A stretch of DNA of 64,000 nt from a virus, in IMG/VR virus record IMGVR_UViG_3300029121_000001. The stretch is one strand, 5' to 3'. How positions within the stretch are numbered: position 1 is the first letter of the stretch; the number at the start of each line of letters is the position of its first letter. Position numbers and translations under genes: made by a program. The notes below the pieces were generated by a model that did not search any database, was not told the origin of the DNA, and was given only the letters and a program-made list of their open reading frames with translations. This document shows, piece after piece, positions 8,165-46,067 of this stretch.

Positions 8165-8947
8165 TTAGCTATTTTTCTCATTCTCCTTATGGATAAAGTA
8201 TTTGGTAAAGACACTAAGTGCCTTACCATGAATAAACAGGAATACATTATCGGTAGGAATACCATGTTCATTCATAAAATCAAGAGTATTGTCGTTATCC
8301 ATATCAGGATATTCTCCAATATAAATAGATTTATCAGCTCCAACAGAGCAGCCGCATTCTTCATCATATCCAATATAGAATTTACCAATACCAGTAATAT
8401 GCTTACTGCCATCATTACCATCGACGATATTAGAGGTAATGTTACCAGACAATTTATCAATATCGGCATTGATATAAACGCATGCAGTATATTTATGCCC
8501 ACAGATATAGAAATCGAATTCTACATATGCAGGCATATCACTGGTAGGCTCATTGAATTTGATATTATCGCTATTTACTTCAATTACTTCTTTCGCAATA
8601 TCATAGAAGTAAGTCTTAGATACATCAGTACCAAAATCAGCTTTAGACCTGATACTTGTAGTACTATCAGGAGTATTTCGATACATATCACAGAAAGCCT
8701 GAAATTCATGAAAGCAATCATTATACTCATCCTCATTATAAGCACGAGAATTATAAATAGGCATATACTCAGGATAGTATTTCAAAGTATTGCTATTAGG
8801 CTCAAGAACTGCGCTATGGGTATATACCGCATCCTGGAAAATATATCTACGATGATTGGTAATAGTGCAGTAGTTCAGCTCAAAAATGGTCAAATAGTGA
8901 CCATTGATAAAGGTGCTGTTAACGATATCAGTACGAGTGAAGTTCAT
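8165..8947 (-). CDS. hypothetical protein
   Basis: ATG at 8947 (MNFTRTD) with AAAAGGAGAA RBS; natural amino-acid composition, unlike the mirror plus-strand ORF 8147-8974. Confidence 0.65.
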   Translation of the reverse strand: MNFTRTDIVNSTFINGHYLTIFELNYCTITNHRRYIFQDAVYTHSAVLEPNSNTLKYYPEYMPIYNSRAYNEDEYNDCFHEFQAFCDMYRNTPDSTTSIRSKADFGTDVSKTYFYDIAKEVIEVNSDNIKFNEPTSDMPAYVEFDFYICGHKYTACVYINADIDKLSGNITSNIVDGNDGSKHITGIGKFYIGYDEECGCSVGADKSIYIGEYPDMDNDNTLDFMNEHGIPTDNVFLFIHGKALSVFTKYFIHKENEKNS

Positions 8948-8951
8948 AATA

Positions 8952-9746
8952 TTATTCTCCTTTTTTATAGATAGCCTTATTGTATTCATTAATAATCGTG
9001 GGAGTAGCTTGCGTAATTATATGCTGACAAAGATACCCCGGATCAATACGATATTTACCAATGAAGTCATTAGATGTTTCACATTTCTGATTATAAGGTG
9101 AATGGTAGTACTTTACTAAGATTGCATTAATGAAATATTTTCCCTTTGCTTCCTTAGGCTTAGCTTTAATGCGATCAACATCACATTCTGCAGAATTCTT
9201 TACAACAAGATTTCCATCCGCATCTGTGATATCAATGATGATATAATCATTAGCCACACATACATCATTTGATTTTGCAAAATTAAAGTAGATATTTACA
9301 TCATATTCTGTATTATCAAATGCTGTAATATTGCCACTGAGTAGCATCATAGCAGTAGGCTCAATCATAAAGAAGTCTACTTTAAATTCGCTACAGGTAA
9401 ACATTTCCTTTGCGGAAATCAAATCAAAGTCACTAGTTTCACCAAAGTATCTCTGAAAAGCATCCCTGAAAGTAATGAGGCTGATATTTGCATACTGAGA
9501 AATAGCCTCTTCATATTTCTTTTCTGCATCTTCGATCTTATCGAAGAACCCATATTTATTGCAGTTGAAAATTTCATACCTTTCATATTTAGGATTAGAA
9601 GTAATCTGTTTGTAATACACGATATCATCCAAGACAAGATATTTGCAAATATCCTTGTCAGTATTACTTACCCATTCCTGAAGGGTAATTCTGTGGCCTT
9701 TGACAAGTTTGCGCTTTAGATCTCGAGTTCTAACATCAGAAACCAT
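8952..9746 (-). CDS. hypothetical protein
   Basis: ORF 8952-9755; second ATG (9746) is correctly spaced from AGAAAGGA. Confidence 0.6.
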   Translation of the reverse strand: MVSDVRTRDLKRKLVKGHRITLQEWVSNTDKDICKYLVLDDIVYYKQITSNPKYERYEIFNCNKYGFFDKIEDAEKKYEEAISQYANISLITFRDAFQRYFGETSDFDLISAKEMFTCSEFKVDFFMIEPTAMMLLSGNITAFDNTEYDVNIYFNFAKSNDVCVANDYIIIDITDADGNLVVKNSAECDVDRIKAKPKEAKGKYFINAILVKYYHSPYNQKCETSNDFIGKYRIDPGYLCQHIITQATPTIINEYNKAIYKKGE

Positions 9747-13885: not shown

Positions 13886-13924
13886 TATATTATATTTCAG
13901 TATTTATAAAATGGATATTATTCG

Positions 13925-15286
13925 TTACTTATTAAATGCTTCTTTTTCTAGATTAAATAGATAATCTGCTTCTTCTTTACCAAGAATATCTACTACCTCA
14001 TTATATGGAAGATTGATCTTCTTAGGTTCAACATCATTTAATTCCATATGCCGTTTATTATAATAATAACAAGATGACAATACTCTACCTTTATGTGCAT
14101 AGCAGATTCCAGTATATCTTTTATTTGCTGTCCCATAAAGTTCGTAATTATATCCAGAACACCAGCCACATCCCTGAGATACTGGGCAAATCATGCATTT
14201 TTCAGGAGATTGAGATTCTCTAGTGATAGAATCTAATTCTTCTTTTATTTTCTTTTCACTATCTCGTTGATAAATGCCATTAAAGCAATCTCCAATACAA
14301 ATTTTAGATGCTTTTTCATCACCAATGGATATAGGCGCATATCTAATACAAGGATATACTTTTCCATCAGGAGCAAATGCAAGCATTGCTCCAGTGCCTC
14401 CACAATAATTTCTTACAGAGATATCAATATCTCCTATATTGTCATTAATCATTGTGATATATCCATTATATTTAGATTTTATCAAATAATTAGATAATTT
14501 CTTTAATTCTGCATATATTTCATTTGCTGTTTTTATTGTATATTCTGGCTCATATGCAAAATTACAATGAATATTCATGCAGCCATTATTTATCATCATC
14601 TTAATAGAATCAGAAATATATTTAATAGACCCAGGAGTAAATGTCATTTTACTATCTATCCAGCCATATTTCTTTTTTCCATCAAGAAAAGCAGCATATG
14701 CTTTTTCAAATGATCCATTTCCGAATTGATCTATTCTATATTTATCATGTAATTCCTGTACCCCATCAATCGATACTGTACATCTTAAAAAATTATGATA
14801 TTTTTTAAATAGGTGTTGAGCATTTGGAGTAAACCATAAAAGTCCATTGGTTGCAAATGAAAATCTTGTAAATGGTGCTAGTGGTATATTTCTTTCTTCA
14901 CATTGGTAAAAATAATAATCGATAATCGATTCAATTAACTTTGCTTCTATCAAAGGCTCGCCACCAATAAAATCGATTATCAATCCTTTAGAAAAATCAC
15001 CAATAAAATCACCATTATTATACATATCTAAAAGTGTATCGACACACTTTCTAGCCGTATAAATGTTCATTGATCCACATTTCTTATTATGCTCATAACA
15101 ATATGAACATCTCAAATTGCATTGATTGGTGACTTGAAATGTTACTGTTCTACATTTAAAATAATTTTCATTGTTATTATTATCATTTCTAAAAATTCTT
15201 TCGATAAATTTAGAATAATCTTCAGATCGTTTAATCACTATATCGTACCTCACGATTTTCAAAATCAAAAATATATTCAATCTCAT
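13925..15286 (-). CDS. radical SAM enzyme with C-terminal SPASM domain (anSME/peptide-maturase-like)
   Basis: CNLRCSYC = CxxxCxxC radical-SAM cluster motif; auxiliary-cluster motifs CGGTGAMLAFAPDGKVYPC and CMICPVSQGCGWC. True start may be GTG at 15238 (GAGG 8 nt upstream, overlaps upstream stop). Confidence 0.8.
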   Translation of the reverse strand: MRLNIFLILKIVRYDIVIKRSEDYSKFIERIFRNDNNNNENYFKCRTVTFQVTNQCNLRCSYCYEHNKKCGSMNIYTARKCVDTLLDMYNNGDFIGDFSKGLIIDFIGGEPLIEAKLIESIIDYYFYQCEERNIPLAPFTRFSFATNGLLWFTPNAQHLFKKYHNFLRCTVSIDGVQELHDKYRIDQFGNGSFEKAYAAFLDGKKKYGWIDSKMTFTPGSIKYISDSIKMMINNGCMNIHCNFAYEPEYTIKTANEIYAELKKLSNYLIKSKYNGYITMINDNIGDIDISVRNYCGGTGAMLAFAPDGKVYPCIRYAPISIGDEKASKICIGDCFNGIYQRDSEKKIKEELDSITRESQSPEKCMICPVSQGCGWCSGYNYELYGTANKRYTGICYAHKGRVLSSCYYYNKRHMELNDVEPKKINLPYNEVVDILGKEEADYLFNLEKEAFNK

Positions 15287-15527
15287 GATCTAATTTTGGT
15301 AAGTGATTAGAAATAATTTTTCTACGGGCATAATCTAATTCAATAAAAGACAGTCTTAATTTATCTGAATATTTCTTTAGCACTTCTTCTTTTTTACTAT
15401 TAGATTCATTCTCTTGTAGTGAATCGAAAATAATTTTAACCATTATTTCATAGCTTTTATATATATAAAATAATCGTTCAATATATTCCAATTCTGCTTC
15501 TTGAATATCTTCAATTTTATGTTCCAT
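15231..15527 (-). CDS. small helical protein, candidate accessory factor of the radical-SAM system
   Basis: ATG at 15527 (TAATATG junction with upstream gene, GGAGAAAAC RBS); 98 aa, acidic and helical; sits directly before the rSAM gene. Confidence 0.5.
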   Translation of the reverse strand: MEHKIEDIQEAELEYIERLFYIYKSYEIMVKIIFDSLQENESNSKKEEVLKKYSDKLRLSFIELDYARRKIISNHLPKLDHEIEYIFDFENREVRYSD

Positions 15528-15528
15528 A

Positions 15529-16122
15529 TTAGTTTTCTCCATGGATTATATTATATTGAGTATTACTGATCTTTTCAAAAGATTCTTGAATATCCATTCT
15601 CATTTTTATTAATTTAATCATGGTTGAAAAATTATCATCAGTAGAATTTCTAAAAAATAAAATCATACTTGAAATTATATAATATAAAGAAAATATAATT
15701 TCATCAGATAATTCACTAAGATTAAGATTAATAATTGAATCTGTAAAATCTTTTGTAAAAACATTTTGAAAATATTTTTTATTATTATCTAAGATTTTGA
15801 AATAAAAAGTTCTTATTGCAAGTCCTAAAGAGATAATATATTTTTCATAATCATTATTAAATTTATAATTGCATCCATTTGCAATAATATCTATTTTCGA
15901 CTTTACATAATTTAGCCAAGAATTAAAAACATAATTACTATCTATTTTATTGAATTGACCCATATAATATAAAATATAAACTATATTATTTTTATTGATA
16001 TTTCCATTTATATGATTATAAATATCATTAACAGAGAAATCTTCTCTATTCAAAAAATGAAAAAGAGCTAGATCTTGATCAACAATTTTATCTGGATCTA
16101 TTGATTTTATATAATATTCCAT
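15529..16122 (-). CDS. hypothetical protein
   Basis: 197-aa ORF, TAAGGAGAT RBS, lies between the Cys-rich protein and the rSAM genes. Confidence 0.6.
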   Translation of the reverse strand: MEYYIKSIDPDKIVDQDLALFHFLNREDFSVNDIYNHINGNINKNNIVYILYYMGQFNKIDSNYVFNSWLNYVKSKIDIIANGCNYKFNNDYEKYIISLGLAIRTFYFKILDNNKKYFQNVFTKDFTDSIINLNLSELSDEIIFSLYYIISSMILFFRNSTDDNFSTMIKLIKMRMDIQESFEKISNTQYNIIHGEN

Positions 16123-16133
16123 ATTTTATCTCC

Positions 16134-16700
16134 TTAATTCAACCAAAATTTAGCATTTCCACAGGATCCACCACAATCTGCAGTACAATTACCTCCATCA
16201 CAATTTTCATAGCATGCTCCCATACAATTACCACTCATAAGTTGGCTAGCACATGCTACGTCACACATACCATCACAGCTTCCGCTGCAACCACCACTAC
16301 AGCCACTACAGCCACTATAGCATCCTGTATAGCACAATCCACTGCAGCTAGATTTACATCCTGTATCTGCCCTAGATGATGCTGTAACAGATTTAGAACT
16401 TAAACTAGAAACTGTACTAGTAGCAGTTGTGATTTGATTAGCATAAACAATAGTATCTGTATTAGGAGTTAATTTGCCTCCATTTACAGCATCTAGTGGA
16501 TTAGTAATCTTTTGAATGTGCTCTAGTTTTATATTTTTGCCTTTTGCAGGTGTAATAGTATAATCATATGAAGTTCCATTATAGGATTTCATACTTCCAA
16601 CACTTGCTGAATTTGATCTACGCGTAATCTCCGATTTTACAAGTTTCTTAAGTGCAGTAAAATCACTAGCACTAATTAATCCACCTTTATTAGTAGCCAT
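16134..16700 (-). CDS. tail-fibre-associated protein with CXXX-repeat cysteine-rich C-terminus
   Basis: ATG at 16700 with AAGGAG RBS. C-terminus GCKSSCSGLCYTGCYSGCSGCSGGCSGSCDGMCDVAC...NCMGACYENCDGGNCTADCGGSC has 16 Cys in about 75 aa, mostly spaced C-x3-C. Confidence 0.7.
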   Translation of the reverse strand: MATNKGGLISASDFTALKKLVKSEITRRSNSASVGSMKSYNGTSYDYTITPAKGKNIKLEHIQKITNPLDAVNGGKLTPNTDTIVYANQITTATSTVSSLSSKSVTASSRADTGCKSSCSGLCYTGCYSGCSGCSGGCSGSCDGMCDVACASQLMSGNCMGACYENCDGGNCTADCGGSCGNAKFWLN

Positions 16701-16707
16701 AATTATA

Positions 16708-17649
16708 TTACTCCTTTCCAATAATAATTCTTACTTTATGAATATTATTATTACTATTAGAAGATTCTATTACTCTGCCTACAGATAGATTAGAATATTC
16801 TTTACTAGACTTTCCAACTCCAGGAATATCAGAAGGGATAATATAATCTCCAATATCTACATTACCAATACACTTTACATATACACGTCCACATAATCCT
16901 ATGGGAATATATTTCTTAATATTCTTAGAAATATAATCATCTCCAGTATCTACTGTTTCTCCACCAATAATCATAGCATATTCATCAGAATGAACTCCTG
17001 CAATAATACTACTTTTATTAGTAGCTTTAATATATTTCTCTTCTTTATTATTTTCATCTAATGCAATAATATCTCCAGGTTCTGTATATTCTCCTCTAGG
17101 GAAGAACTCTGCATAGTCATTATATACAGCACCATAACATTTACTAAATTTTGCTACACCATTTTTATCTACATAATAACTAGCACTACCAAAATTAATA
17201 GTACCAGTCATTGTTCCTCCTGCTATAGGAAGATAAGCGTCATTTAGCGAAGTCAGAGTCTGATTCATAGAATAGATCAGAGCAGAGGTAGGAATGTAGT
17301 CATTGGAGTTAACTTGAGTACTAGAAGTAGGTAGTTGAGCAACCTTATGAGAGTGATTAGAAGGTGCTTTGCCATCAATTTGGCCCTTAACAGTAGAGCC
17401 AGTAGAGAAGCCAGTACCAAGAACATTGTACAGATAGCGGACATTTTTTGCCATCTGAGTAATCTTAGTAAAGATACTAGCATGGTTATCGGAAGTAGTA
17501 ATTTGACCTACATTAGTCCAAGATGTTGCACTTGCTTGGGCAACATCGCTAGAAGAGAATCCACCAGTACCTGTAGTAAGAGTACCAGTAGGGGAAGGAG
17601 ATATGTCGTAAGACGTAGATCCTACCTTAATATGATCAACATTAGCCAT
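16708..17649 (-). CDS. tail fibre protein with C-terminal autoproteolytic/chaperone-like domain
   Basis: LPIAGGTMTGTINF tail-fibre motif; C-terminal GLCGRVYVKCIGNVDIGDYIIPSDIPGVG resembles the phi29 gp12-type (Peptidase_G2) intramolecular chaperone domain. Confidence 0.7.
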   Translation of the reverse strand: MANVDHIKVGSTSYDISPSPTGTLTTGTGGFSSSDVAQASATSWTNVGQITTSDNHASIFTKITQMAKNVRYLYNVLGTGFSTGSTVKGQIDGKAPSNHSHKVAQLPTSSTQVNSNDYIPTSALIYSMNQTLTSLNDAYLPIAGGTMTGTINFGSASYYVDKNGVAKFSKCYGAVYNDYAEFFPRGEYTEPGDIIALDENNKEEKYIKATNKSSIIAGVHSDEYAMIIGGETVDTGDDYISKNIKKYIPIGLCGRVYVKCIGNVDIGDYIIPSDIPGVGKSSKEYSNLSVGRVIESSNSNNNIHKVRIIIGKE

Positions 17650-17751
17650 ATTTTTTAGTTTCCTTTCTCTAAATTTACCTGTTTTGGCTTGATTTTGAGT
17701 AACTATTTTAAAAAAGAAATTGCGGGGTGATCATAAAGACCACACCGAATA

Positions 17752-17904
17752 AGATCTTAAACGTAGCCTTCAATAAAATAAATTCAACGAAACCTTCAAA
17801 TTATCTGACGCTTCTTATAGTCTTCAATTACAATGGATAAATCTGTATATCGAAATCTTCAAAACATTTTAACGAATCGTTCATTCATTTTAACGCAATC
17901 TTCA
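17752..17904. repeat. six direct copies of a 12-mer (minus-strand TTGAAGRTTTCG), iteron-like array
   Basis: Plus-strand copies cgtagccttcaa 17752, cgaaaccttcaa 17778, tagtcttcaa 17818, cgaaatcttcaa 17851, cgaatcgttca 17873, cgcaatcttca 17894; followed by a nearly pure AT stretch 17905-17975. Confidence 0.6.
17804..17872 (+). other. short plus-strand cassette remnant starting at an inverted copy of the junction core
   Basis: tctgacgcttct at 17804-17815 opens SDASYSLQLQWINLYIEIFKTF*; no start codon. Confidence 0.4.
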
Positions 17905-17979
17905 TTATCATATTGTTACATATTTTTAAATTAAAAATGATATTATATGAAACATATACTAAATAAGATATAAAAATAT

Positions 17980-18009
17980 GAGGGTAGAAATCGTCAAATT
18001 TCTACCCTC
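17980..18009. terminator. strong stem-loop (gagggtagaaa/tttctaccctc)
   Basis: 11-bp perfect stem seen directly; followed by tandem ccattttag ccattttag. Confidence 0.5.
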
Positions 18010-18099
18010 TAAATACCCCATTTTAGGCCATTTTAGAGGCGTTTGGCAGATTTCTCAGACTACTTCGTAATAGCGTCATATTATTTAAAAAATAATAAA

Positions 18100-18137
18100 A
18101 ATAAAAAGAAAAGCCAATAGAGATTTCTCTCTATTGG
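18100..18137 (-). terminator. rho-independent terminator after cassette A
   Basis: Hairpin ccaatagagatttctctctattgg plus T-run on the minus strand. Confidence 0.7.
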
Positions 18138-18145
18138 TTTATAAT

Positions 18146-18373
18146 TTAAATATAGACAATGTTTGCATGATAATCTGTATTACCAGATACTGCACTATCA
18201 GAGTAGTGATTTATGTATTTGCAATATAATTTTCCATTTTCTTTACAAACCTAGTAGATTGTACTGCCGTATGTACTTAAATTCAATAATTCATATCCAA
18301 TCATTATATCATTTAATTTATATCCTTTAGTATCAATATAAATATTATTAAGTCTTTTTATAGAAGCGTCAGA
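18146..18373 (-). other. start-less ORF cassette A (type I, SDASIKRL...), with in-frame TAG
   Basis: Begins at junction core 18361-18375. Reads SDASIKRLNNIYIDTKGYKLNDIMIGYELLNLSTYGSTIY*VCKENGKLYCKYINHYSDSAVSGNTDYHANIVYI*; TAG at 18251-18253. Homologous to cassette D along its whole length. Confidence 0.6.
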
Positions 18374-18379
18374 TTGCTA

Positions 18380-18676
18380 TTATATAGAAATATAATAAAT
18401 ATTTATGGTTCCAACCATAGGTGATCTAATAAATGTAAAATTATTACTATTATTAATTTTACATGAATAAAATAAATAAATAATAAATCTTTCATTTGTA
18501 GATGTATATTGTGAATGTGCTACATTTACTAATATCATCGTAATATTGTCAGTCGTATCTGGAATTGCATTAATTAGATACTCACTAGAATAATCTGTTG
18601 AAGTCATTTTCACTTCAATCATATATGTATTATTTATACTCTGAGTTCGCTGCTTAATTTTAGTAGAAGCGTCAGA
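18380..18676 (-). other. start-less ORF cassette B (type II, SDASTKIK...)
   Basis: Begins at junction core 18664-18678 immediately after an in-frame TAA and a terminator. 98 codons ending INIYYISI*; no RBS, and the first in-frame ATG is 19 codons in. Confidence 0.6.
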
Positions 18677-18683
18677 TTAATAG

Positions 18684-18722
18684 AAAAAAAAATAAAGAGG
18701 AAGTAGTTTTATCTACTTCCTC
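18684..18722 (-). terminator. rho-independent terminator of 18731-19576, immediately upstream of cassette B
   Basis: Hairpin gaggaagtag...ctacttcctc followed on the minus strand by TTTATTTTTTTTT. Confidence 0.75.
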
Positions 18723-21153: not shown

Positions 21154-21166
21154 AGCGAATTATTTC
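21148..21166 (-). repeat. 19-nt gene-junction repeat, copy 1 (downstream flank of DHFR)
   Basis: catcatagcgaattatttc; minus strand GAAATAATTCGCTATGATG = stop TAA + 5 nt + ATGATG start. Confidence 0.75.
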
Positions 21167-21810
21167 CTCTTATAAGTCATAAATTTAAAGGTGAAGTCAT
21201 ACTTACCATGGACATTTCTCCAAGCCTCTGTTTCAGCAACTCTCCAATTATCATCTTCATCCAGATTAGGAAATACTGCATCATATTCAGGAGCAATAGC
21301 AGCAACCTTAGTTACATATACAGTATCACAATAAGGAAGAAGAAGTCTATAGATTTGTTCTCCACCACATACAATAGTATTTTCACTGTCTCCAATGATT
21401 TCTACTGTATCTAGTAGACCACGAAGATTTTCTACCCAGAAAATCATGGTTCTATTGTTAGGAGTTTTAACTTCAGGATTACTTCTAACAGCAAAAGAAG
21501 ATCTATACTCTGCTTCATCTATATCAGGATTACGAATTCCACCTTCAGGAGCTAAGAAAAATCCCGCATACTTAGCGCCAAATAAAGATTTATGGTCAAG
21601 TTTATCCCAATGCTTAGTCATGACAATATTTTTTCTTCCAGGAAGAGGTTTCTTTCCAGGAAACGATTCTAATGTCTTACGACCACATACAATAGTTTTA
21701 CCCATTGTAATATCCTTGAATCGAGCCATATCCTCTTTGATATTAAAAAGAAGGCTATTATTATTTCCAATTGCCCAATTTTTATCTACGCACACAATAG
21801 CTTTCATCAT
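21160..21810 (-). CDS. folA: dihydrofolate reductase
   Basis: VDKNWAIGNNNSLLFNIKEDMARFKDITMGKTIVCGRKTLESFPGKKPLPGRKNIVMT matches the DHFR N-terminal signature; adjacent to ThyA. Confidence 0.8.
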   Translation of the reverse strand: MMKAIVCVDKNWAIGNNNSLLFNIKEDMARFKDITMGKTIVCGRKTLESFPGKKPLPGRKNIVMTKHWDKLDHKSLFGAKYAGFFLAPEGGIRNPDIDEAEYRSSFAVRSNPEVKTPNNRTMIFWVENLRGLLDTVEIIGDSENTIVCGGEQIYRLLLPYCDTVYVTKVAAIAPEYDAVFPNLDEDDNWRVAETEAWRNVHGKYDFTFKFMTYKRK

Positions 21811-25495: not shown

Positions 25496-27318
25496 TTACA
25501 TTCGAACAGAATTAGAGAAGTTTGCTCTCTTTGCACCGAATTGGCCAATACCAGCAGACGATGCAGGGAAATTACCAAGATTATCAGAAATGATCTGTTC
25601 ATAATCAATCAATTTTCTCAACCAATCAGGAACAGGAAGATCTTTAGGTAGTGCAATAGTATCAAGCTTTCCTTTGAAAACTTTATTAATTGTTCTACCT
25701 TCTACTAATCCTGTATTATTAAGATCAATCAATTCACAGATCTTTACATACTGCATTGGATAATCTTCTCTAATAGTTTCCAAGGTATATTTATCAACTT
25801 TAACCTTGATTACATCAATGGCATTTCTATCATTCAAATCAAATCCAGGAAGATCACACTTGATATAATTCCATGCCATTGCTGCTTTAACACCTTGAAT
25901 TCTAGTAGGATCATCATAGTTATCCATAGACTTAATAGTTGCAGGCTTGTAATATTTCTTAGATCCGGAAACAAGATCATTATAAATGGTCTTTTCAAGA
26001 ATAGCAATGTCTTTGATCAACTTCAATTGATCAATAGAATCTCCAGTAAGCATATCTTCAAGAAGAATCTTTTTCAATGCTTTCTGGGTATCTTTAGAAG
26101 TAGAAGATTTAGTTAGACAATCAATACCCTTGACATCCAATACGCCACTTCCAAGATAATTGCCTTCCTGCAGAATCTGAAGACTTGCATAATGTTTCTT
26201 TGCATCTGTCAACATGATTCGAGACATATAGAACTCATTCTTCATGTTGATCTTACATTTATCAGCTCCTCTAAAAGATTTAGATTCCTTAGTAAAATCA
26301 ATCATATACTGATTAATTACAGAAGAGAGAATATAACACATGATATTGATCAATGCAAATTTTACATTATCCTGAGGAATAATCTTCGTAGCATCAATCA
26401 TTCTCTTTTGCTCAATAATCTCTTCATTAAAGAAATCATAATCTTTTTTATTTTCCAGAAATTCAATAGCTGCTAATTCATCAGGGTTTGCAATGTCACC
26501 AAAACTATCAGTTTTTAAGAAACTTATTGCAACCTGTTTATCTACAGCATTATACCAATCTGGGGTTTCTGTATCTTTCCAGAAATAATCTTCTTTCTTC
26601 TTTTCAGCTTCTAGATACTTAAATACATCAATCTGTTGATGCATAATAGGACAGTCATAATTCTGAAGATACTGGATATTATAATTATACCAAGCATCCA
26701 AAGAAATGAAAGACGAGTCAGTATCAGATACAATAGATACTGTCTTAATCATTTCTTTATTTCTAATCATTCTATCCATATATTGATGACAGTAGAAGAC
26801 ATATTCCATCAATAGATCACGAAGCTGATCAAGATATCCGATTATTTCTTTCGGAGGTTTAGCAGGTTCAATATAAGGAGTTTTCATTCCAGTAATAATC
26901 TTTATCATCAAATCTCTTGCAATAGGCAAGTCCATAAAACAATAAAGATTATTCTTATAGAACAATCTATTCAATTCAATCTGATTACAATTTTGAATAA
27001 TTCTCCATACAGTTTCCATATCCTGTTCTGTAGGAACATATTTAAAACCACAATTTAGAATGATCTTATTAAAACATTCATCTGGAGAAATAAAACCATT
27101 AAATCCAAGAACTTCATAATCATTATATTTCCAGTCATTTCCCTCCATTCTTACATTGTCAATAAAGATGAGAACATCATTAAGACTTCCAAACTTAACA
27201 TTGTTCCCAAGGAATCCTTCAAAGCAAAGAATTGCAGAACTAATTAGAGATCTACCGATAGATGTTACAGAAGGTGCAATGTTGAGGTCGAACAAAATCG
27301 ATACATACAAACCAACCA
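25496..27318 (-). CDS. family-B DNA polymerase, exon 3 (second half of motif B, motif C, KKxY, thumb)
   Basis: VSDTDSSF (motif C, DTDS), KKHYASL (KKRY-type motif). Exon start set at 27318, directly after the omega-G of intron 2. Confidence 0.8.
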
Positions 27319-27653
27319 CAAAATCTTCACGTAGCTCGTTGGAGTTAATCAATGGATTAATCCTCTCTTCTACGCAGTTCTCTTATGAACTTCTCTAGGT
27401 GTTGCCTAGAAGTTGTGACTATATAATAGTCTATATAAATTATTTTATATAGACCCAGGATTTTCGAATTAAACGGTCTTACGTTTACAAGACAGCCGTC
27501 CCCACTTGGGGCCTACTCCTCTTAAGAGGATAGTCGATAAGCGTCTCTTATGATTTCTCATAAGCTTTCGCAATTGATTAGAGCCGTAGCCCTTTCCCAA
27601 TTTTAACCCTTGTTATCATTCTTGACTCACATCAAGAAGGGGCAGTTTAGTTT
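27319..27653 (-). ncRNA. group I intron 2 (ORF-less, 335 nt)
   Basis: P-like AAAUUGGGAAAGGGCU with UACG-capped hairpin (27588-27603), R-like CUUAUCGACUAUCC (27528-27541), S-like UAUUAUAUAGUCAC (27415-27428). Preceded by U, ends in G; GCCC near the 5' end can pair with exon GGGU. Confidence 0.7.
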
Positions 27654-43940: not shown

Positions 43941-46067
43941 TTATTCTTGCTGATCTCCTTTATCATTAGATACAAAATAAATTGCATCTACATTACCCTT
44001 CATATCATATTCATCATTAGAACGGAATTCATCAGAAACCATTTCATCATTAACCATGAATTTCTGAGGTTGTTCCATAAAGTAAAGATCAAAGATACTG
44101 GGTTTATGCTTTTTAGTAGACAAAGGAGAAACCAGAGTCTTACCAACACGCTGATATTCGAAGTTAACAGTAATACTCGGAGAATAATTTAATGCAGAAC
44201 TTAGAGTGAGGATCTTATAAGGTGCATTCTCAATAGCCCAATTAGGCATTTCAAGAATATTATCAGGATCTCTCATCTGATTTGCAAGAATAGTCTCCAA
44301 ATGAACAGCAGAAATTACCAGACCACCTTCAAGGTTTGCATTGATAAATTCTGCAACGATACTATCCTTATCAAAGGAAGAAGTATCTTTCTTTCTATCA
44401 ATGATATGCTTAGATCTTTCAAGAGTTCTCTGAAGTTCCTTATTCTGAATCTTGACACTAAAGATACTAGGCAAACCTTTAATAGCATCAAGAGGAATAG
44501 TATATACTCCATCATCTTCTTTAGCTTTCTTAGATTTAAGAATTCTATTAAGATCTTCTGTTAGATAGATATTATCTTCATCCACTGTATGGAATGTTAC
44601 AATTCTACCATCAGGATACAGCACATCAAAAGATGGAGTGAATTCTTCATAAATAATTCCATCACTGTCATCATCGTCATCAGAATCAAATTTACTAGAA
44701 TCCAAAACCAGATAATATCCAGATACATCCGTATCTTCATCGATATTGATAGAATTCAATTCGATTTTAAAGATATCAAAGAACTCAGGATTCCACTTCA
44801 TTTCGATGACTGCAGATTCAAGCAAATGCTTTGCGGACAGAAGCATCTGTGTATATTTCTCAGACAGAAGCTCAGCAGCCAACTTGCCAGGATTGATATC
44901 TCTATTAGTATAATAAAGATCACCATAGCATTTATGGCAAATGCCATGACCTCTAGCATAAGACTGACATGTGATAGGAGATCTGAAATATAGAGTCTTT
45001 CCAATAAGATCAGTATCTTTATCAGAATCCAAAAGATAATCAGGACCATGAGGATTAAACTTATAATATCTCTTATCATAGAGCTTTAAAAGTTTAGCAT
45101 CCTTGATAGTCATCTTAATGAAGTTTGCAGTATCACAGCAATAATTAGGATCATCGTTCAAGAATGTATCCAGATTATTAGTTTCCAGTAAACGTGCAAA
45201 TGCACCAGAGGTACCGACATTCATCTTCTGCAGAATCTGGGCAATTCTACCGACAGAGGAGTCAATAACATAAGATTCAGGATTCTCGACACCACCATTC
45301 ATGAAAGAATTATTAATGATATATGGGAAAATTCCTCCCTGACCATCAGGTTTAGTGCCAATATTGACAGACACTTCCTTAAACTGTTTCGGAGAAATAG
45401 CTTCACCTGAAGTAAAAGAGTCTCTCAAGCAATGATCATTTGCTTTGATATATTTGATCTGCATATTGGTATAATCCATGCCAATAGCTTTTACATCTTC
45501 AATAGGTGTATTAGACAGATCAGCATGGATAGACTCATTAAAATCAGGATACCTTTCCATCAGTTTAATGGTATCAGTGAAATTGACAGTATTTGCTAGA
45601 TACATAGCAAATTCATCAATATACTTCATCTTGGAAATCATATCATCAAAAAGATTATTGAGCACCATAAAGTTAATATCTTTTCTATGTGCTTTAATAA
45701 GCTTATTACAATAAGCTTCAATATTCTTTTTGGTAATAGCTGTCGTATTAAAGATATACCTTACGGTAATAATATCTCCAATGCAAATCGAGAATGTCCA
45801 GAAAATTAGATTATACCAATAATCTACCAAAGTAAATGTTACAAACTCATCAGAAGGATCAAGTCTATACTCAGGATCATGATTAAAATGAACTCCAATC
45901 TTATATGCTTGAACATCAGGTTGCTCAATGCCATCTCTCATTATATTGAGAATTCCATTAAAGTGATCCATAAAATTATCAGGATTAATTGTGTTTACAT
46001 CAATCTCCTGATATCCAGTTTGTGCGAGTTGAACATATGGGCCATAGTTTTCATAATAAGTAACCAT
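43941..46067 (-). CDS. multisubunit RNA polymerase beta-prime-like subunit (C-terminal half)
   Basis: FRSPITCQSYARGHGICHKCYGDL aligns with beta-prime RSPLTC..G.C..CYG.DL. Upstream DSSVGRIAQILQKMNVGTSGAFARLLE is bridge-helix-like; downstream LSEKYTQMLLSAKH is trigger-loop-like. Confidence 0.55.
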   Translation of the reverse strand: MVTYYENYGPYVQLAQTGYQEIDVNTINPDNFMDHFNGILNIMRDGIEQPDVQAYKIGVHFNHDPEYRLDPSDEFVTFTLVDYWYNLIFWTFSICIGDIITVRYIFNTTAITKKNIEAYCNKLIKAHRKDINFMVLNNLFDDMISKMKYIDEFAMYLANTVNFTDTIKLMERYPDFNESIHADLSNTPIEDVKAIGMDYTNMQIKYIKANDHCLRDSFTSGEAISPKQFKEVSVNIGTKPDGQGGIFPYIINNSFMNGGVENPESYVIDSSVGRIAQILQKMNVGTSGAFARLLETNNLDTFLNDDPNYCCDTANFIKMTIKDAKLLKLYDKRYYKFNPHGPDYLLDSDKDTDLIGKTLYFRSPITCQSYARGHGICHKCYGDLYYTNRDINPGKLAAELLSEKYTQMLLSAKHLLESAVIEMKWNPEFFDIFKIELNSINIDEDTDVSGYYLVLDSSKFDSDDDDDSDGIIYEEFTPSFDVLYPDGRIVTFHTVDEDNIYLTEDLNRILKSKKAKEDDGVYTIPLDAIKGLPSIFSVKIQNKELQRTLERSKHIIDRKKDTSSFDKDSIVAEFINANLEGGLVISAVHLETILANQMRDPDNILEMPNWAIENAPYKILTLSSALNYSPSITVNFEYQRVGKTLVSPLSTKKHKPSIFDLYFMEQPQKFMVNDEMVSDEFRSNDEYDMKGNVDAIYFVSNDKGDQQE

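Follow-up and report, generated by a model that had tools for sequence, protein, structure and literature searches.

A candidate CXXX-repeat radical SAM maturation cassette in the tail-fibre gene block of a jumbo-like phage

Bacterial CXXX-repeat systems are known from a purely bioinformatic definition in NCBIfam, in which a Cys-repeat target protein (TIGR04114/TIGR04117) is joined by a radical S-adenosylmethionine (SAM) maturase (TIGR04115), a small associated protein (TIGR04116) and a second maturase (TIGR04119); such systems were reportedly introduced by Haft and Basu in 2011, and locus L002 (MT837480.1) serves here as the bacterial example. We describe a related cassette in a 64,000-nucleotide stretch of DNA from a large gut phage (IMG/VR record IMGVR_UViG_3300029121_000001, hereafter the window), where a protein with a Cys-repeat tail, a 98-aa protein and a radical SAM/SPASM enzyme are encoded in a block that begins with a fibre-like gene. 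On balance, this cassette is probably a phage-borne variant of the CXXX-repeat radical SAM maturation system, situated in a tail-fibre block and acting on a tail-associated protein. An earlier reading of the bare sequence (the original prediction) had seen in it a Cys repeat fused to a fibre-adjacent phage protein, and this view held: the repeat is attached to an N-domain that is conserved and specific to phages, and linkage of the cassette to tail and fibre genes is tight. Rather than being confined to the window phage, the cassette belongs to a large family, spread over hundreds of phages, in which cultured SPN3US-like jumbo phages are included.

Radical SAM/SPASM modification of a protein that stays within a larger complex has a precedent in QhpD/QhpC, from the maturation of the quinohemoprotein amine dehydrogenase γ subunit, where the enzyme installs several Cys-to-Asp/Glu thioethers in a subunit of that complex. 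Adhesins of the T-even gp38 type are encoded directly after the fibre gene, sit with their N-terminal part on the fibre tip and carry short Gly-rich repeats and variable segments in their C-terminal part. PapB, the freyrasin enzyme, makes six thioethers at repeated CXXXD motifs and recognizes the leader of its substrate through a recognition element (RRE) for peptides that are made on ribosomes and modified post-translationally (RiPPs) (PMC12373016).

The radical SAM/SPASM enzyme, its presumed substrate and their partners

The radical SAM/SPASM gene occupies 13925–15238 of the minus strand. Its longest open reading frame (ORF) reaches 15286; translation probably begins with the GTG at 15238, a start that comes with a GAGG Shine-Dalgarno sequence, agrees with the N-terminus of the homologue in the related locus L001 and overlaps the stop codon of the 98-aa gene. 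The CxxxCxxC and SPASM motifs named in the original prediction are both present, the former as C56-N-L-R-C60-S-Y-C63 and the latter as the Cys set C295..G..C313, C364-x2-C367-x5-C373-x2-C376 and C395. In Pfam the protein scored 28.4 bits against Radical_SAM (cutoff 29.5) and 25 bits against Fer4_12 (cutoff 22). The best NCBIfam model was TIGR04115, 'radical SAM peptide maturase, CXXX-repeat target family', with 283.2 bits over model positions 2–359 of 359, followed by PapB (NF047865, 149.3 bits) and the SCIFF maturase (TIGR03974, 83.8 bits), both far under their cutoffs of 340 and 425, and by CcpM (79 bits) and QhpD (77 bits). Cassette homologues from L001 and from L008, a Vallitalea prophage, reached 301 and 428 bits against TIGR04115, the latter passing the trusted cutoff of 350, and the enzyme of the canonical bacterial locus L002 reached 630. 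By these scores the window enzyme belongs to a divergent phage clade of the TIGR04115 family, outside the curated equivalog. The closest solved structure is that of the thioether synthase CteB (5WGG, E 3e-19), and because the alignment starts at CteB residue 97, past the CteB RRE, and runs from there through the SPASM region, the phage enzyme lacks a fused RRE. Radical SAM proteins of Campylobacter phages were set aside as too distant to inform the comparison. In the related locus L011 the cassette radical SAM gene (L011:10001-13414) encodes 1137 aa and contains two LAGLIDADG/HINT inteins, one inside the CxxxCxxC motif (...DDCNLA / CFAAGTKIL...FAVHN / CNYCYQ) and one inside the SPASM Cys motif (...CPISEGCSW / CFKAGTLIT...AIVHN / CTAYNYQ).

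The presumed substrate is the 188-aa product of the minus-strand gene at 16134–16700. As originally described, it joins an N-terminal domain of about 115 aa, here delimited as the Cys-free residues 1–114 (16359–16700), to a tail of 16 mostly C-x3-C-spaced Cys, which covers residues 115–188 and, with the stop codon, positions 16134–16358. The gaps between these Cys are, in order, 3,3,3,3,2,3,3,3,3,8,3,3,4,3,3, so that 12 of the 15 spacings are C-x3-C, a number that none of 100,000 composition-preserving shuffles of the 74-aa tail matched (p < 1e-5). Further features of the tail are the conserved junction CKSSCSGLCYTGCYSGCSGCSG, one 8-residue loop, four Asp and one Glu, and the hydrophobic C-terminus FWLN. 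The underlying DNA is not a tandem repeat and holds only a single 9-bp unit repeated 3.1 times; selection for the periodicity therefore acts at the protein level, and DNA slippage was ruled out as the source of the repeat. Plus-strand ORFs across the tail, such as 16101–16379, were dismissed as antisense translations of the Cys repeats. Against the window tail TIGR04117 gave a weak match (E 0.005, 16.9 bits, cutoff 50), and members of the protein family carry precomputed matches to PF27846 ('tSAM_targ_Cxxx_rpt'), so curators had already seen the repeat as a radical SAM target.

The N-domain, with approximately three predicted helices, is the signature of a phage family. No model matched it in Pfam, NCBIfam or PHROG scans. 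A word-indexed search returned 112 clusters of 171–266 aa. A profile of the N-domain only, run against 1.84 billion representative proteins, reached 557 clusters (50% identity) with a threshold of E <= 1e-3, of which 317 also passed E <= 1e-10, and the domain began at residue 1 in almost all matches. Among the 150 best profile matches, 104 of the 111 full-length N-domain proteins carry a CXXX tail. Residues E24, R27 and R28 are invariant in both of our alignments (A1 and A4), and Y40 is invariant in A1 and at least 90% conserved in A4. AlphaFold2 (AF2) places helices at 11–28, 59–73 and 87–101 with confidence values (pLDDT) of 70–80 and leaves the Cys tail unmodelled (pLDDT ~30); a Foldseek search of this model against BFVD found only uncharacterized homologues. 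When three divergent family members were compared with cultured-phage GenBank records there was no match, the only hit being the uncultured contig MT835573.

Tails in the family range from 26 to 160 residues with 6–36 Cys, spaced C-x3-C in 78% and C-x2-C in 19% of cases, and 106 of the 113 members examined have the junction GC..SC(S/T)G(L/M)C. Within the repeat, Gly usually takes the middle position and Ser, Thr or Gly mostly fill the flanking ones; many tails end in hydrophobic or aromatic C-termini (FWLN, LWLY, PIFI). Close relatives conserve the tail and the N-domain equally well (~90% tail identity where the N-domain is >90% identical). Where N-domains share 70–80% identity, the figure for non-Cys columns of the tail is only ~39% and tails vary in length, and at greater distances the tail diverges and alters its length faster than the N-domain. 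Such behaviour is to be expected of a distal module that is folded yet adaptable. Three database proteins look like fusions: P0219 joins a Cys-tail protein to the small protein, and P0185 and P0146 carry extra N-terminal domains that have no Pfam match. P0219 is probably a read-through product, since its linker contains the family C-terminus ...PPFI followed by the small protein's own Met, and P0185 and P0146 may be upstream genes joined in frame. For these reasons none of the three was counted as fusion evidence for an interaction.

A 98-aa protein (15231–15527, minus strand) and a 197-aa protein (15529–16122) are encoded ahead of the radical SAM gene, as the original prediction had it. For the 98-aa protein, a start at M6 of the ORF is backed by P0113. 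Neither the window protein nor its phage homologues matched an NCBIfam model directly, and the window protein had no match in Pfam or PHROG either. The small protein of L002 is a clear TIGR04116 member (E 2e-30), and a profile built from 11 phage small proteins aligned with it over the full length (hmmsearch E 3.8e-7 in a single comparison; hhalign probability 81%, again full length). From this comparison we take the 98-aa protein to be a likely remote homologue of TIGR04116 (CXXX_rpt_assoc), which in bacteria is called 'CXXX repeat peptide modification system protein'. AF2 models it as two long helices and a C-terminal β-hairpin (pLDDT 76, from a shallow alignment of two sequences), and Foldseek against the PDB gave no match with E below 2, only generic helical hairpins. 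Word-indexed searches with the 98-aa and 197-aa proteins recovered only near-identical copies. The 197-aa protein, which contains a single Cys, has no Pfam, NCBIfam or PHROG match and is clade-specific: its homologues in the nearest clade (L001, L004, L009 and L018) are encoded at the equivalent place, where L006 and L012 encode proteins with no detectable relationship to it and L010 has none. Since this protein is not universal, the universal core of the cassette comprises three genes. The second maturase TIGR04119 (CXXX_matur, SPASM-only), which scores 235 bits in L002, had no match among seven scanned proteins of the window, those of the five operon genes and of two neighbours, and was absent from the gene sets examined at phage loci; its corresponding position in the window is taken by the 197-aa protein.

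All genes of the 13.8–18.1 kb region lie on the minus strand, where every ORF described in the original prediction exists. Five of them are coupled and flanked by two terminator-like hairpins: one at 18009–17980 (13-bp stem followed by a T-run), which closes the preceding transcription unit and forms the upstream boundary of the block, and one at 13888–13857 (14-bp stem followed by a T-run), which lies 37 nt past the radical SAM stop codon and marks the end of the operon, where a terminator had been proposed. Seven terminator-like sites were observed in the region, against 1.6 expected from shuffles. The Cys-tail gene starts with an ATG at 16700, and its AAGGAG Shine-Dalgarno sequence lies inside the last codons of the upstream fibre-like gene, an arrangement that points to translational coupling of the two. 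Its longest ORF extends to a TTG at 16721, an unlikely start because homologues begin MA(T/E/A)..., and its stop codon is overlapped by the AAGGAG of the following 197-aa gene.

Tail association and distribution of the cassette

The first gene of the block (16708–17649, minus strand) encodes a fibre-like protein of 313 aa; a conserved domain, which spans its C-terminal ~165 aa, looks like an intramolecular-chaperone (IMC) domain. The 'tail fibre' label given to it originally draws its support mainly from context in related loci. Direct matches, to PHROG 8443 tail fiber (E 1e-3) and to Pfam Peptidase_G2/IMC (21.9 bits, cutoff 25), are weak, and searching the PDB with a profile returned nothing. 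The C-terminal domain is 50–82% identical to the protein just upstream of the Cys-tail gene in L001, L004, L009 and L018; in L018 it ends a 474-aa protein that follows baseplate-wedge genes, and in L001 a 369-aa protein that follows ORFs judged baseplate-like by inspection only. More generally, the gene immediately upstream, or next but one, of the Cys-tail gene is fibre-like and falls into one of two unrelated classes, the first with the IMC-like C-terminal domain (window, L001, L004, L009, L018) and the second with a '...WIDT..G.IKY.NG.AWV...' tip (L006, L007, L010, L016, L100).

To sample the cassette from the substrate side we used a diverse set of 14 loci (L001, L004/L005, L006–L012 and L015–L018). 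The Cys-tail gene, a small-protein homologue and a radical SAM homologue occurred together in all 14, and in 13 of them the cassette adjoins tail genes, in cases between fibre genes. In the Vallitalea prophage L008 the order is sheath, tube, tape measure, baseplate J, Mu gp48, a 272-aa protein, the cassette and an M23 lysin; in the temperate siphovirus L010 it is tape measure, collagen-like fibre, a 172-aa protein, the cassette, holin and integrase. L018 carries the cassette between baseplate-wedge genes with the 474-aa fibre and pectate-lyase/β-helix tailspikes, and a prophage of Neglectibacter timonensis SN17 (L100:6093-11633; NZ_LT160640.1, roughly 928.8–946.2 kb) carries it between a short fibre gene and collagen-like fibre genes, with a Cys-tail ORF of 342 codons from stop to stop in which 53 Cys follow one another at regular spacing. 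The window cassette is accompanied by its fibre-like gene, at a distance from the other structural genes.

From the enzyme side, a search for related loci with the single radical SAM sequence found none; an alignment query succeeded and recovered >504 relatives in IMG/VR, of which the 80 best loci were counted. All 80 had the small protein, 77 had at least 8 Cys in a regularly spaced run, 75 had the N-domain (always in the same ORF as that run) and 74 had the IMC-type fibre domain; the six incomplete loci all end <2 kb upstream of the radical SAM gene. Every one of the 74 evaluable loci shares the order fibre, Cys-tail, ~0.5–0.6-kb middle gene, small protein, radical SAM. In GTDB the closest enzymes with N-domain targets are all found in Clostridia-type metagenome-assembled genomes (MAGs) and isolates, among them Papillibacter, Neglectibacter, Eubacteriales, Clostridium and one MAG labelled Mollicutes, which points to anaerobic Firmicute hosts. 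Near-identical cassette proteins were also found on a metagenomic contig of 260,671 bp.

Individual loci depart from the common arrangement. L007 has a duplicated cassette (L007:7608-13981) in the order small protein (93 aa), Cys-tail (205 aa), 446-aa protein, Cys-tail (210 aa), 433-aa protein, small protein (100 aa) and radical SAM; the 446-aa and 433-aa proteins are paralogues with 58% identity and no Pfam match, whose GS...D.D motif looks nucleotidyltransferase-like by eye. In L011 a 231-aa ORF of pure CXXX repeats without an N-domain (L011:8545-9240) begins 7 nt after the Cys-tail gene, in a region where the metagenome gene caller took the wrong frame (8624-9292); the ORF may represent another target, or else the 3' portion of a longer gene that was split. 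The L015 cassette (L015:5413-8194) runs small protein, radical SAM, Cys-tail and a 193-aa gene. All four genes end in TAA and the last three contain one in-frame TAG each; these TAGs, together with the Gln that database protein P0089 has at that position, show that this phage recodes TAG as Gln.

A parallel to this arrangement occurs in cultured jumbo phages. The PHROG that matches the window enzyme, phrog_1802, includes 'radical SAM' proteins of SPN3US-like Salmonella/Escherichia and Erwinia jumbo phages, and the gene order in SPN3US is gp168, gp167, two CXXX-repeat ORFs, gp165, radical SAM gp164 and radical SAM/SPASM gp163. Of these, gp168 is a phiKZ gp131-like tail protein of the baseplate periphery and fibres (PMC5105663). 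The next product, gp167, is a virion structural protein, gp165 has no Pfam match, and gp163 has TIGR04115 as its best family (126 bits). The CXXX ORFs encode 130 and 134 aa (L003:2094-2486 and L003:2497-2901; NC_027402, minus strand, 143413-144220). The first is carried by 70 records of SPN3US-like and Erwinia jumbo phages, most of which leave it unannotated, and the second has been annotated in the wrong frame, as SPN3US_0166/ACQ60_gp100 (L003:2570-2905). Since Cys-repeat ORFs look low-complexity, current annotation misses or misframes real genes of this kind.

The window genome is low in GC (~32%) and jumbo-phage-like. It encodes a phiKZ-type multisubunit RNA polymerase β subunit (window 43941–46067; phrog_3015, E 1e-46), a DNA polymerase (window 25496–27352; phrog_2927) and a helicase. 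Upstream of the fibre-like gene, ~1 kb of DNA (17650–18700) is almost without a convincing ORF and holds three minus-strand terminator-like hairpins (18725–18694, 18137–18114 and the block boundary at 18009–17980) and a 21-bp tandem repeat (17854–17906); this DNA may have a regulatory or promoter role in expression of the cassette operon. Further away, a minus-strand ORF of 216 aa (window 21160–21810) has an N-terminus that looks dihydrofolate reductase-like by eye (MMKAIVCVDKNWAIGNNNSLLF...).

Proposed mechanism and alternative readings

The putative mechanism begins with late transcription of the five genes as one unit and their coupled translation. The case for the 188-aa Cys-tail protein as the radical SAM substrate is strong, and its conserved Cys-free N-domain would be the handle that is recognized. 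Because the enzyme lacks a fused RRE, recognition of the N-domain may fall to the 98-aa TIGR04116-like partner, and we have moderate confidence that this protein mediates or assists recognition. The radical SAM/SPASM enzyme would then use 5'-deoxyadenosyl radical chemistry to place covalent cross-links along the C-x3-C ladder. By analogy with CteB, PapB and QhpD these would most likely be thioethers from Cys sulfur to carbon, and the installation of thioethers on the Cys ladder is again held with moderate confidence. The same N-domain would probably also dock the product onto the fibre, leaving the stapled, variable tail exposed. The outcome would be a compact, non-reducible, protease-resistant module that acts together with the tail fibre as a distal tip, adhesin or decoration. 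Such a module would suit the anaerobic, reducing and protease-rich gut, where disulfides are unreliable, and its enzyme requires the reducing cytoplasm.

In its fullest form the proposal describes a fibre-tip protein with a ladder of thioether or other carbon-sulfur staples installed by the radical SAM enzyme, a substitute for disulfides in which the residues between the Cys act as host-range or adhesion determinants, present in hundreds of gut phages and Clostridia prophages and, in a second form, in SPN3US-like and Erwinia phages. We offer this fuller version only tentatively and regard it as somewhat doubtful.

A number of observations weigh against maturation of a virion protein by the cassette. 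The window enzyme, at 283.2 bits, lies under the TIGR04115 trusted cutoff of 350, so that the profile search suggested at the outset named the expected family for the enzyme, but below its threshold, and returned no direct NCBIfam match for the 98-aa protein. The asserted likeness to CXXX-repeat systems therefore stands in part: TIGR04115 is the best family and remote homology links the 98-aa protein to TIGR04116, but the score is under the cutoff, TIGR04119 is absent and the 197-aa protein is not universal. The AF2-predicted fold of the 98-aa protein is not that of an RRE, a winged helix of three strands and three helices. Acidic acceptors of the PapB type are scarce (5 Asp/Glu in the 74-aa window tail; Asp at ~5% of any inter-Cys position in the family), and the acceptor residue, even the bond type, may therefore differ. 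To our knowledge, neither the chemistry of CXXX-repeat maturases nor the function of the bacterial system has ever been determined. The 80 IMG/VR loci are not independent, as they form a fairly close clade (54–68% radical SAM identity). Presence of the Cys-tail protein in the virion is supported, with moderate confidence and from genomes alone, by the embedding of the cassette in tail modules (13 of 14 loci) and the translational coupling. The cassette of L015, with its altered gene order, lies away from recognizable tail genes, and cargo genes (morons) are also classically found downstream of fibre genes. Published virion proteomics could not have detected the SPN3US CXXX proteins, which were unannotated or annotated in the wrong frame.

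In a rival reading the product is not a virion component but RiPP-like, with the N-domain as leader and the Cys tail as core; the modified protein, or a piece cleaved from it, would be released at lysis as a bacteriocin, metal chelator, signal or anti-defence factor, the cassette being cargo behind the fibre genes only because this site is permissive. RiPPs typically pair a conserved 'leader' with a more variable 'core', the L002 counterpart in bacteria is a Cys-rich protein that stands alone, is exported by TAT and lies beside the same enzyme family, the L015 cassette lies away from tail genes, and in L006, L008 and L010 the cassette stands just before lysis genes. We nevertheless consider this reading unlikely. 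No locus has a protease or exporter gene within the cassette, and a helical, highly conserved domain of 114 aa at the exact N-terminus of a ~190–340-aa protein would be an unusual leader. Jumbo phages that look strictly lytic also have the cassette. L018 and L100 carry it between tail genes rather than at the module's end, its translation is coupled to that of the fibre gene, and the window shows the fibre-like gene moving with it, away from other structural genes. Improbable, to a further degree, is a role for the Cys-tail protein as a fibre assembly factor or metal-binding scaffold, whether an Fe/Zn-thiolate rod or a discarded chaperone, in which the radical SAM enzyme would carry out a non-thioether modification or the Cys would stay metal ligands. 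Genes right after fibre genes often encode fibre chaperones, as general phage knowledge has it, dense C-x3-C/C-x2-C arrays resemble metallothionein-like metal binders, acidic acceptors for PapB-type chemistry are few, and AF2 cannot fold the tail alone. Strict co-inheritance with a peptide-modifying radical SAM/SPASM enzyme of a thioether-forming neighbourhood argues instead for covalent modification of the repeats, and 16 to >50 Cys are seldom seen in chaperones.

That the enzyme might be an anaerobic sulfatase-maturing, cofactor or nucleotide-modifying enzyme, with the Cys-rich neighbour a coincidence, has some basis in database records that in cases label its phage homologues 'arylsulfatase regulator' or 'AlbA'. 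The original prediction had named a firm classification as a sulfatase maturase as the result that would overturn it, and no such classification emerged: the anaerobic sulfatase maturase model TIGR03942 scored 49.7 bits (cutoff 349) against 283 bits for TIGR04115, which effectively excludes a sulfatase-maturase or cofactor role. There is no sulfatase gene in the window neighbourhood, and a CXXX ORF co-occurs with the enzyme in 77 of the 80 loci sampled through the enzyme and in all 14 sampled through the substrate. We regard a coincidental neighbour as effectively refuted.

If maturation of a tail-associated protein by the cassette is correct, it carries several consequences. RiPP-type radical SAM maturases have been thought of as makers of small secreted peptides, and here such an enzyme stands in tail modules and acts, by our reading, on a protein of 190–340 aa. 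Radical SAM cross-linking would then extend to virus structural and assembly biology, with the Cys-tail protein as the first radically and enzymatically cross-linked viral structural protein. The uncharacterized CXXX-repeat system would gain its first biological context, and the long-unexplained 'radical SAM' genes of SPN3US-like and Erwinia jumbo phages would be explained. Genetically encoded, thioether-stapled Cys ladders would also be of interest for peptide and protein engineering. Tractable systems exist in SPN3US, for which there are an amber-mutant collection and virion proteomics, and in the prophage of the cultured anaerobe N. timonensis SN17.

Comparison with known systems

Our literature search found no published description of the cassette in phages. 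What is new in the phage form, relative to the system already defined in NCBIfam, is the N-domain that replaces a signal peptide, the lack of TIGR04119 and the integration into a tail module. The phage cassette and the bacterial CXXX system share the radical SAM family and adjacent, co-oriented genes, a target whose ladder of C-x3-C/C-x2-C Cys is rich in Ser, Gly and Thr, and a partner of ~95 aa with the same helix-helix-β-hairpin pattern and remote homology. They differ in that the bacterial L002 target has a twin-arginine translocation (TAT) signal where the phage target has its conserved 105–115-aa N-domain, and in that the phage cassette often has a clade-specific ~170–200-aa protein inserted, lacks TIGR04119 and is embedded in tail modules. 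Both the window radical SAM enzyme and the window small protein stay under the curated thresholds of the bacterial system.

The SPN3US-like and Erwinia phages are related to phiKZ, whose type of RNA polymerase β subunit is encoded in the window as well, and they too place CXXX ORFs after tail-periphery genes (gp168, gp167) and before a TIGR04115-type radical SAM/SPASM gene. Their version differs in a shorter (~50 aa) and unrelated N-terminal region, in having two tandem targets and two radical SAM genes, and in a radical SAM enzyme only ~28% identical to that of the window; no recognizable TIGR04116-like small protein was identified in these phages.

PapB (freyrasin) and CteB (SCIFF/thermocellin) resemble the phage enzyme in their radical SAM/SPASM architecture and their Cys-rich substrates, and the CXXXD repeat logic of PapB comes close to the phage C-x3-C. 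Their substrates are short peptides of ~40–50 aa with leaders, whereas the phage target has 190–340 aa; CteB recognizes its leader via an RRE, unlike the phage enzyme with no fused RRE; and most phage repeats, unlike PapB substrates, have no Asp/Glu acceptor. QhpD (TIGR03906) is a detectable relative of the window enzyme (77 bits), but it serves the maturation of a bacterial periplasmic enzyme, with no repeat ladder in its substrate and no phage context. The likeness of gp38 to the Cys-tail protein is one of analogy only and merely hints at a way in which the product might be deployed: the two have no relation in sequence or fold, and gp38 has neither cysteines nor enzymatic maturation.

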